A stretch of 5,072 nucleotides of DNA, taken from the IMG/VR virus record IMGVR_UViG_2675903425_000026; one strand, written 5' to 3'. The notes under the pieces are model-generated. The model worked only from the letters and a program-made list of their open reading frames with translations, did no database searches and was not told the DNA's origin. The DNA is from a virus (Duplodnaviria; Heunggongvirae; Uroviricota; Caudoviricetes). This document shows positions 1,500-2,462 of this stretch, piece by piece. Numbering within the stretch: the stretch's first letter is position 1; each line of letters begins with the position of its first letter. The translations under genes and the position numbers were made by a program.

Positions 1500-2462
1500 T
1501 CACCCCCTGAATCCCGGCGGTATTTCAGTGTCCGGTTCAGAAATGTGATTCACGCAACGCTGCGCGGGCGAACGCCCCAGGCGGATAACCAGTTCATCCC
1601 ATTTTTCCCGGAGTTTTGCCGGACTCATGATGTTTTTTACCCAGAACGAATCCCGCTGGAGACGCCCAAACATTTCACAAATTTGTCTGTGAGTTCTGCC
1701 ATCCAGCATCCGCATTGTCCGCACGTCATTGGCCCATGCAGTCCAGTTGGGTTCTTTCGGTCTCGTGATCTCGCCATCATCGCTGGCCGCCTGCTCGTAA
1801 AGACTCACGATTCGTCCCCAGATCCACTGTGCGCACACCAAATCTTCCTGACTTCCCCACTGGCGTTTTTTCGCACTGAACACAACCGCGTCAGGGTGTC
1901 GGGTTAAAAAATTCTGTTCAGCCGTCTGCGGGTCCGGTTGCGAAGCGTCCGGACAAGAAGATCTTTTATCTGACGGATCAGGTTTTAATACTGACGGATC
2001 GGGGTCAATCATCGCCCCCCTAATCGGCAGTTTGTTATCAACAGTTGATCCATCAAAATTTGACGGGTCAACCGTTGAGGGGGCAATATTTGACGGGTCA
2101 ACTGTTAACGGGTCATTTTTTGCCGGGCTAATTTTTCTTTTCGGTTTATATGACTCACGCGCCGCCGCAGCAGCTGCTTCGAGTTTTTCCACATTAAGCC
2201 GATAGATATTGCTTACATTACGCCCACCGACCTTACGCTCTTCCTTCGTCAGCCAGCCCTCTTTCGCCAGTTCTGCAATAGCCGATTTCACTGTGGATTC
2301 ACTTCTTGCACCGATCTGACGCCGGATAGTTTCAATGGCAGGCCATGACACGCCCTCGTCATTGCTGTAGTCTGCAAGACGGGCCATAACCGCCACCCTG
2401 GATAAGATCATGCCGGTGAAGGCGCACCCTTCCCAGACAAGACCATGAAGCTTGCTGCTCAT
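1500..2462 (-). CDS. Phage replication initiator (O-like): N-terminal winged-helix DNA-binding domain, repeat-encoded linker, C-terminal domain
   Basis: Long ORF immediately upstream of the DnaC-like gene. HTH-like N-terminus (ILSRVAVMARLADYSNDEGVSWPAIETIRRQIGARSESTVKSAIAELAKEGWL). The linker peptide repeats (TVDPSN x2, DPDPS/KPDPSD) are encoded by DNA iterons. Start chosen at ATG 2462 (GGGGG SD 5-9 nt upstream) rather than the track's GTG 2477, which has no SD. Confidence 0.8.
   Translation of the reverse strand: MSSKLHGLVWEGCAFTGMILSRVAVMARLADYSNDEGVSWPAIETIRRQIGARSESTVKSAIAELAKEGWLTKEERKVGGRNVSNIYRLNVEKLEAAAAAARESYKPKRKISPAKNDPLTVDPSNIAPSTVDPSNFDGSTVDNKLPIRGAMIDPDPSVLKPDPSDKRSSCPDASQPDPQTAEQNFLTRHPDAVVFSAKKRQWGSQEDLVCAQWIWGRIVSLYEQAASDDGEITRPKEPNWTAWANDVRTMRMLDGRTHRQICEMFGRLQRDSFWVKNIMSPAKLREKWDELVIRLGRSPAQRCVNHISEPDTEIPPGFRG
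1965..2160. repeat. Iteron array plus adjacent A/T-rich stretch inside the O-like gene: candidate replication origin
   Basis: Direct repeats of core TGACGG(A/G)TCA at 1971-1980, 1992-2001, 2061-2070, 2091-2100; degenerate copies TGATCCATCA at 2046-2055 and TGCCGGGCTA at 2121-2130; two 30-bp spacings. Followed by an A/T-rich stretch at about 2116-2160 (tttttgccgggctaatttttcttttcggtttatatgac). Confidence 0.55.

Follow-up and report, generated by a model that had tools for sequence, protein, structure and literature searches.

Where does replication start in a lambdoid prophage whose replication initiator does not look like a relative of lambda O? This question is raised by a stretch of 5,072 nucleotides (nt) of Caudoviricetes DNA (IMG/VR record IMGVR_UViG_2675903425_000026; the window hereafter), in which the open reading frame (ORF) of an O-like initiator carries a cluster of short repeats. 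The region of this gene, 1500-2477, is 100% identical to E. coli O157:H7 chromosomes, and by its sequence the window represents the part of a cryptic lambdoid prophage of that serotype, CP-933P/Sp12, that serves immunity and replication. A previous study described the CP-933P/Sp12 immunity region and called the gene that follows ydaT homologous to lambda o, without mentioning an origin for it (PMC8630535). Here we argue that the DNA at ~1932-2132, with lineage-specific flanks to ~2160, is probably the replication origin of CP-933P/Sp12, placed inside its own initiator gene, and that it is best read as a lambda-style origin (iterons plus unwinding element) belonging to an initiator family other than that of lambda O. 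The gene and the elements within it are the following.

1500-2462, minus strand: ORF of the O-like initiator, 320 residues, a 100% match to the O157:H7 annotation
2045-2131: iteron array, six 12-base-pair (bp) dyad sites TTGAnnnnTCAA in exact 15-bp phasing
2045-2056, 2060-2071, 2075-2086, 2090-2101, 2105-2116 and 2120-2131: the individual TTGAnnnnTCAA sites, the last one weak
1959-1979 and 1980-2000, minus strand: two exactly tandem 21-bp units, GATCCGTCAGTATTAAAACCT and GATCCGTCAGATAAAAGATCT on that strand
2001-2008, minus strand: isolated half-unit, TTGACCCC on that strand, directly upstream of the first GATC unit
2116-2160: A/T-rich stretch 5' of the array, particular to this lineage and coding for ESYKPKRKISPAKN

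A sequence-only reading of the window had counted four to six copies of TGACGG(A/G)TCA in this gene, two of them at exact 30-bp spacing. Exact copies of TGACGGRTCA are indeed present at 1971, 2061 and 2091, and copies with a single mismatch at 1992, 2106 and 2046 (minus strand), which makes three exact copies and six at ≤1 mismatch, the 30-bp step being that from 2061 to 2091. A repeat-finder check of the array region had been proposed as well; Tandem Repeats Finder and a repeat search both recover the repeats, the former over 2038-2115 with a 15-bp period in 5.2 copies and a 30-bp period in 2.3 copies (79% identity), the latter as five in-register copies in exact 15-bp steps. The description of all copies as one array holds for the sites in 15-bp phase, but not for the copies at 1971 and 1992, which are members of the separate tandem 21-bp units. 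Within the array, the strongest sites are 2060-2071 and 2090-2101 (TTGACGGGTCAA), the two with TTGAC/GTCAA arms, while alternate units are degenerate in the lineage of the window, leaving an effective 30-bp period. When ≤2 mismatches to TGACGGRTCA are allowed, the window holds 20 matches vs 6.6 expected, a number reached by 0 of 200 shuffles. Across 19 kb of the prophage, ten matches at ≤1 mismatch were counted, with 2.1 expected in total, and six of them fall within the array stretch of ~150 bp.

That the repeats lie inside the initiator ORF and produce a DPS-rich linker was also read correctly from the letters: they encode DPLTV/DPSNI/APSTV/DPSNF/DGSTV ... DPDPSVLKPDPSDK. The array and the 21-bp units together occupy codons ~111-168 of 320, within a linker that is predicted to be disordered (residues 109-177). 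As the repeats coincide with the DNA of this linker, they are located where the protein constrains the sequence least.

Is this DNA then maintained for the sake of the peptide, or for its own sake? Relatives of the gene were collected by a protein search, alignment and one scan of species-representative genomes, which resulted in 80 loci from many Enterobacterales genera and 79 distinct full-length genes, the N-terminal domains of which are 43-100% identical pairwise. All linkers of this family show a five-residue periodicity (DPSNI, SDASK, SERSE etc.), and the number of units varies by five-residue steps. Conservation was compared along the genes, with the flanking domains of the same genes serving as internal controls:

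Residues 1-98, N-terminal domain: third-base conservation 0.50, major-codon fraction 0.53, amino-acid conservation 0.81
Residues 111-177, linker: third-base conservation 0.78, major-codon fraction 0.89, amino-acid conservation 0.68
Residues 180-215, after the linker: third-base conservation 0.52, major-codon fraction 0.62, amino-acid conservation 0.61

The third-base conservation of the linker exceeds that of the N-terminal domain (p = 1e-15) and that of the following segment (p = 4e-11; both Mann-Whitney), and this family-wide constraint at residues 111-177 corresponds to 1932-2132 of the window. Such values show strong purifying selection on the linker DNA at the nucleotide level, with flanking domains that are saturated at synonymous sites. 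Because alignment inside the repeat array is ambiguous, serine codons were also tested in an alignment-free manner, with units defined at the protein level only (x-[DE]-x-S-x). The second serine of the unit is encoded by TCA in 438 of 512 units (86%), compared to 199 of the 1342 serines found elsewhere in these genes (15%), and the first serine by TCT in 200 of 240 cases (83%), compared to 111 of 1342 elsewhere (8%). Reducing the set to one representative for each of 47 clusters, made at 85% nucleotide identity of the N-terminal domain, still yields TCA in 266/305 vs 117/789 (Fisher p = 7e-115), and the bias is seen in 43 of the 47.

The pattern within the unit is informative too. The family unit is TCTGAC-nCn-TCAAAA. 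Its TGA/TCA arms are invariant, but in the central codon of the four array units the third position scores 0.34-0.57 and is as free as third positions in the N-terminal domain. Central positions that vary freely between arms that do not vary argue that the conservation of the linker is not caused by recent horizontal spread. Where the serine of a unit has changed to P, L or A, the motif bases are mostly retained. The density of TGAYNNNTCA is 12.8 per kb in the linker vs 0.32 per kb outside it, and a spacing of 15 bp between neighbouring copies is seen in 117 cases. Furthermore, a clade with the recognition helix STVITAI, and not STVRTAI, carries other unit centres (TGAACGTTCA), a weak sign that recognition helix and unit centre covary within the family. 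The 80 lambda O loci that could be retrieved from viral contigs are all 99-100% identical and hold no divergence for a codon control.

The array can also be read in the antisense direction, where an ORF of 57 residues (2032-2205, plus strand) reads DPSKFDGSTVEGAIFDGSTVNGS... and so nearly mirrors the sense peptide. The mirror peptide results from the dyad symmetry of the repeat units and does not count as evidence of a gene. Antisense coding was considered as a cause of the conservation and rejected: the frozen third base of TCA is also a third codon position in the antisense frame.

The 21-bp units lie 3' of the array when the gene is read in its own direction, and each begins with GATCCGTCA and continues with an A/T-rich tail; GATC sites are located at 1960, 1976 and 1997. 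We consider 1959-2000 the candidate DNA-unwinding element. Judging from family consensus columns 206-213 and the SfIV sequence, the half-unit at 2001-2008 is the remnant of an extra unit TTTGACCCGTCAGAA that is present there in most relatives. The 30-mer 1961-1990 has 70% A+T and ranks second for low stability among the 30-mers of the initiator gene; in 60 of 77 relatives, the lowest stability in the entire gene falls on the homologous 3' element (30-mer starting ≤15 nt away). Across the family, the order of elements is the array, one more unit, and then GATCCGTCAGTAAATTCAAAACA(A/T)GATCC(G/A)TCAGATAAAAAAC on the 3' side, which is near-frozen. At alignment column 214, Asp is encoded by GAT in 79 of 79 genes, and at column 222 GAT is the sole Asp codon where Asp is present (91%); both create GATC. 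In the window as a whole GATC is not enriched (19 vs 18.4 expected), and only the local cluster with its family-wide conservation is notable, not the window-wide number.

An A/T-rich stretch beside the repeats had been noticed in the sequence-only reading, and 2128-2157, at 73% A+T, is the least stable 30-mer of the gene. From its position the reading concluded that the order of iterons and A/T-rich segment is opposite to that in lambda, and this has to be corrected. Most members of the family have gaps in the alignment columns of the stretch at 2116-2160, which is particular to this lineage, whereas the family-conserved element of low stability lies 3' of the array, so that the order is the same as in lambda.

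Comparison with related prophages bears on which part of the initiator belongs with the repeats. A match to the gene is found in 2235 E. coli records, many of which share 1502-1967 only. In the loci L005-L007 the same C-terminal half is joined to an unrelated N-terminal domain (e.g. WP_032206435.1, 'phage O protein family'), with the initiator gene again placed after a YdaT-like gene, and repeats of another kind occupy the same place in the gene: 23-bp dyad iterons CATCGGGCCATTTTGACCCGATG in 4-5 copies at 23-24 bp spacing, and three A/T-rich 12-mers TATTCTCTGTAG located 3' of them in gene orientation.

1967: module junction; relatives with another N-terminal domain and other iterons share only 1502-1967, at 87-91% identity
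L005 2466-2620 and L007 2461-2638: repeats of the alternative module, in a lambda-like layout

The junction at ~1967 is the 3' edge of the repeats in the window. Among L003-L007 the types of cro and cI differ while the O module is kept, and YdaU of the Rac prophage has yet another N-terminal domain with its own repeats at the equivalent place. N-terminal domain and iterons are thus exchanged as a block, and as such form a specificity module.

In the Rac prophage of E. coli K-12, the middle of ydaU contains four AAGCAGATGTTCAA-like 14-mers (L002 2472-2563) at 33, 33 and 12 bp spacing, and the product of ydaU is a DUF1376-type O analogue, also ending in IPPGFRG. These 14-mers are candidate iterons of the Rac origin oriJ; a literature search found no paper giving the oriJ sequence.

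The initiator (RefSeq WP_000095669.1) is annotated as 'helix-turn-helix domain-containing protein'. An AlphaFold2 model, for which 22 homologues were used, divides it as follows, with the predicted local distance difference test (pLDDT) as a measure of confidence.

2151-2462, minus strand: N-terminal winged-helix DNA-binding domain, residues 1-104, pLDDT ~80-90, topology H-H-H-H-E-E-H
1932-2138, minus strand: predicted disordered linker, residues 109-177, pLDDT <50 at residues 109-168 and 170-177
1572-1931, minus strand: helical C-terminal domain, residues 178-297
1503-1571, minus strand: C-terminal tail, floppy in the model, ending ...EPDTEIPPGFRG and resembling the C-terminus of DnaT

Pfam places HTH_36 at residues 25-71 (2e-6, 27.8 bits) and gives a weak, sub-threshold DnaD_N match. 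A Foldseek search with the N-terminal domain returns winged-helix regulators of the MarR/ArsR/PadR type at E of at least 4e-3, which indicates the fold class only, and BFVD adds phage HTH and replication proteins; no solved initiator is among the matches of the fold search, which define just the generic winged-helix class. PHROG 391, 'replication initiation O-like', covers the whole protein (7e-115), a functional label for a cluster distinct from lambda O. Indeed, the Pfam and NCBIfam matches are HTH_36, the weak DnaD_N and a DnaT-like tail of 21 residues, with no lambda O model among them. By these searches the initiator is not a sequence homologue of lambda O, and its likeness is one of architecture and not of family membership. 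Residues ~195-302 match PHROGs labelled 'DnaD-like helicase loader' and 'replisome organizer', and the modelled C-terminal domain is presumed to be the part that recruits helicase or loader.

The last ~21 residues (1503-1565), ...ISEPDTEIPPGFRG, resemble the C-terminus of the primosomal protein DnaT, with an NCBIfam E of 0.004 and an E of 0.01-0.03 for PDB chains 2ru8, 6aep and 9zbt (residues 300-320). A PDB sequence search with the initiator gave nothing beyond this 21-residue likeness, and the likeness probably accounts for the label 'primosomal protein I' that phage records use. In 40 of 78 family loci, which differ in their C-terminal domains, the protein has a tail that ends in GFRG or GFRS, and so does Rac YdaU; such a tail may be a short motif for the recruitment of helicase or loader. 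Six further family loci end in ...W(E/D)xxL.

So how would an origin of this kind work? The N-terminal winged-helix domain would bind the 12-bp dyad sites, probably as dimers (arms TTGA/TCAA here, TGA/TCA in the family), and since the bound sites lie head to tail every 15 bp, a nucleoprotein array would form. This array would strain and open the adjacent A/T-rich, GATC-bearing 21-bp units (1959-2000), where the C-terminal domain and the DnaT-like tail would bring host DnaB, aided in this prophage by a DnaC-like loader, the gene of which (753-1493) is directly downstream of the initiator gene. In the family, a DnaC-like gene is found downstream of the initiator in 1 of 79 loci (tblastn, E < 1e-5), and the E. 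coli relative L003 is also without it; the loader gene thus appears to be an optional accessory of the replication module. With the origin placed in the DNA of a disordered linker, the DNA signal would dictate the peptide, that is, a pentapeptide-periodic, DPS-rich linker, and gain or loss of a 15-bp unit would alter origin and linker together. The cryptic copy, too, may still fire.

Several points weigh against an origin of this type at this place. Only three sites are ≤1 mismatch from TTGACGGGTCAA, two of them exact and the third (2105-2116) with one mismatch in the 10-bp core. The spacing of 15 bp from centre to centre amounts to ~1.4 helical turns, vs 20-24 bp for lambda iterons. At 70-73% A+T over 30 bp, the A/T-rich elements are modest next to the region in lambda, and in this gene the least stable stretch lies 5' of the array, so that unwinding may occur on either side. 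Absence of the DnaC-like partner downstream in 78 of 79 loci means that helicase recruitment cannot generally depend on it and must generally use host factors. Close E. coli relatives are without 1-3 units or one 21-bp unit, which would reflect either tolerance of the origin or decay of cryptic copies. CP-933P is itself cryptic, and the element may be inactive here. Finally, literature searches found no mapped origin, binding, unwinding or autonomous replication for this initiator family.

These points have to be set beside other explanations of the same repeats. Selection and co-inheritance with the N-terminal domain indicate only a sequence-specific reader and not the start of a fork, and the repeats could therefore be initiator-binding sites with a regulatory role (roadblock autorepression, handcuffing copy control or incompatibility) in a prophage that starts replication elsewhere; plasmid iterons, too, commonly have control functions. 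However, the 19-kb prophage segment holds no second motif cluster, the array is flanked by a conserved element of low stability, as in true origins, and lambda and the alternative module share the layout of iterons followed by an A/T-rich region at the same place, by which we consider a purely regulatory role unlikely. A different reader is conceivable as well, such as a YdaT/CII-like or YdaS/Cro-like protein or a host factor that controls transcription of the replication genes, and an exact match to the relaxed DnaA-box consensus does lie nearby (2185-2193). Yet DnaA-box-like matches are at chance level, 1450-2550 has no promoter-like or terminator-like site, and in L003-L007 the repeats co-vary with the N-terminal domain of the initiator rather than with the neighbouring regulators. 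This makes another reader very improbable.

Of the explanations that do away with a bound protein altogether, one holds that the repeats are a by-product of a slippage-prone, low-complexity protein linker and have no function as DNA. The region does code for a predicted disordered linker, and the unit number varies by 5 residues among close relatives, but drift at third positions would then be expected, whereas synonymous sites vary far less than they do in the structured domains, serine codons are position-fixed in 47 clusters, and motif bases stay while amino acids change. The codon data have largely refuted slippage already, and we regard it as very improbable too. The conserved DNA could also be a recombination junction, as the module boundary at ~1967 might suggest, or a structured element of mRNA or single-stranded DNA, given that the minus-strand transcript of 1950-2165 folds better than 200 of 200 shuffles (z = -4.2). 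The breakpoint, however, is at the 3' edge and not across the array, and a junction driven by homology would not need the different repeats that the alternative module has of its own. Likewise, the fold follows directly from the dyad units, there is no Rfam family match, and direct phasing at 15 bp with invariant arms and free centres is what repeated protein-binding sites look like, not a single helix. Junction and structured element are, in our view, very unlikely.

An in-gene origin of the initiator, the explanation that we prefer, can be compared with systems already known. In the lambda record, four iterons are annotated at O codons ~116-145, and the High-A/T region is right of the iterons, i.e. 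3' in gene O (PMC6022878). The resemblance to lambda ori in gene O that had been seen from the letters was borne out, both in the in-gene position and in the order of elements (PMC6022878; PMC7466680). Like lambda ori, the element lies mid-gene between a DNA-binding N-terminal domain and a C-terminal domain that here is presumed to recruit the loader (lambda-type Stx phages have six-iteron origins), with several dyad-symmetric putative initiator sites followed by an A/T-rich region on the 3' side (PMC6022878; PMC7466680). As in lambda, N-terminal domain and iterons swap together, and the protein tolerates in-frame changes in origin length. Unlike in lambda, the N-terminal domain is a winged-helix HTH_36, the family has 3-8 units of 12-bp sites at strict 15-bp phasing, whereas lambda has 4-6 iterons of 18 bp at 20-24 bp, the A/T-rich part consists of tandem 21-24-bp units each starting with GATC, and P is replaced by a DnaC-like AAA+ loader or has no counterpart. 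Function and layout therefore match a lambdoid in-gene origin, and membership and geometry do not match lambda O.

Closer counterparts are found in isolated phages. SfIV, SfII and phiP27 (L17), like many Enterobacterales prophages, have a homologous N-terminal domain, with 45-53% identity. SfIV shares with the window a 15-bp array (TCTGACCCGTCAAAA, 4.3 copies) followed by GATC-bearing A/T-rich units, and phiP27 a 15-bp array (TGAACCGTCAAAATC, 3.3 copies) followed by GATC-bearing 24-bp units in 2.5 copies. They differ from the window in the arm flanks (TCTGA...TCAAA vs TTGA...TCAA), and in C-terminal domains and downstream partners. The same layout in isolated temperate phages indicates that this architecture is not only a relic of decayed prophages.

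In P1 oriR and in the 13-mers of oriC, the A/T-rich repeated element beside the initiator sites carries conserved Dam (GATC) sites, as do the units described here; unlike these origins, the window is without a DnaA-box cluster, and the unit length is 21-24 bp. DnaA-box-like matches number 10 vs 9.7 expected, and the exact match to the relaxed consensus mentioned above is not conserved in the family. Nor do the repeats match an iteron plasmid origin of the Rep/RepA type (repeats of ~17-22 bp, two turns, DnaA boxes), the period being 15 bp. Origins embedded in initiator genes are known from unrelated phages, in P22 gene 18, SPP1 gene 38 and lactococcal phages. For a specialist an in-gene origin is thus the expected arrangement, and the general picture of lambdoid replication is unchanged; what is useful here is that the element is precisely defined, that its apparently reversed order is corrected, and that the dual-coding signature is clear.

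In the literature found, only lambda-type origins are described (PMC6022878; PMC7466680). Could this element be the type example of an uncharacterised, widespread class of origins in Enterobacterales prophages with HTH_36-type initiators? We propose this tentatively, as a possibility about which we are rather doubtful. If it were true, dimers every 15 bp would lie on nearly opposite faces of the DNA, in a filament-like arrangement and not in a wrapped O-some of the lambda type. Moreover, the Dam/SeqA state of the GATC-initiated 21-24-bp units could gate firing, and gain or loss of units would tune origin strength and linker length at once.

At the least, a probable origin can now be placed for a common family of prophages in E. 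coli, Shigella, Klebsiella and other enterobacteria, among them CP-933P of O157:H7 as well as SfII and SfIV, which are serotype-converting phages; genome records label the initiator of this family merely 'helix-turn-helix domain-containing protein' or 'primosomal protein'. The linker is a clean case of dual coding, with frozen synonymous sites and position-specific serine codons in a disordered region, a pattern by which in-gene origins of other phage initiators can be searched for with simple computation. The analysis also defines the fragment and the base changes for work on replication, incompatibility and prophage induction.

The record NZ_CP148542.1 (L091), a circular 'plasmid' of 15,977 bp from E. 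coli Z1322PEC0161, consists of a lambdoid early-right region only. Its genes are cI-like, cro, ydaT-like, O-like (92% identity), DnaC-like, Q and lysis, and no other replication gene is listed. It recalls the lambda-dv plasmid, but the ydaT-like and O-like genes are frameshifted and the assembly is possibly poor, which makes it a lead and not evidence.

The genes around the initiator, in an order taken from the annotated O157:H7 surroundings and from Pfam, NCBIfam and PHROG scans, are as follows.

Truncated by the window start, minus strand: DUF1627 gene
753-1493, minus strand: DnaC-like AAA+ helicase loader (Pfam IstB_IS21, 1.5e-19; NCBIfam PRK12377, 9e-151, and DnaC, 2e-92)
2485-2877, minus strand: YdaT/CII-like gene, containing a run of 50 N at 2725-2774 (masked or unresolved bases)
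2874-3176, minus strand: YdaS/Cro-like gene
3274-3645, plus strand: PaaR2
3666-3857, plus strand: PaaA2 (Pfam PaaA2, 1e-19)
3859-4137, plus strand: ParE2 (Pfam ParE_toxin, 2e-16)

The genes paaR2-paaA2-parE2 (3274-4137) form the three-component toxin-antitoxin and immunity locus of CP-933P, which has already been described (PMC8630535). Motifs GTTTAGTG/GTTTAGTT are repeated at 3180-3260, between ydaS and paaR2, and at 4200-4250, downstream of parE2; they are probably the OR/OL operators and PR/PRM/PL promoters reported in that study (PMC8630535). Between parE2 and ydfC, a small ORF (4568-4768, minus strand) has two CxxC pairs and is named 'ECs_2282 family putative zinc-binding protein' in RefSeq. 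At ~609-615, a T homopolymer has 7 T in the window vs 8 T in strain PV15-279, which breaks the reading frame of DUF1627 and leaves an ORF of 59 residues at 548-727 (minus strand); this is either a real frameshift or a sequencing error.

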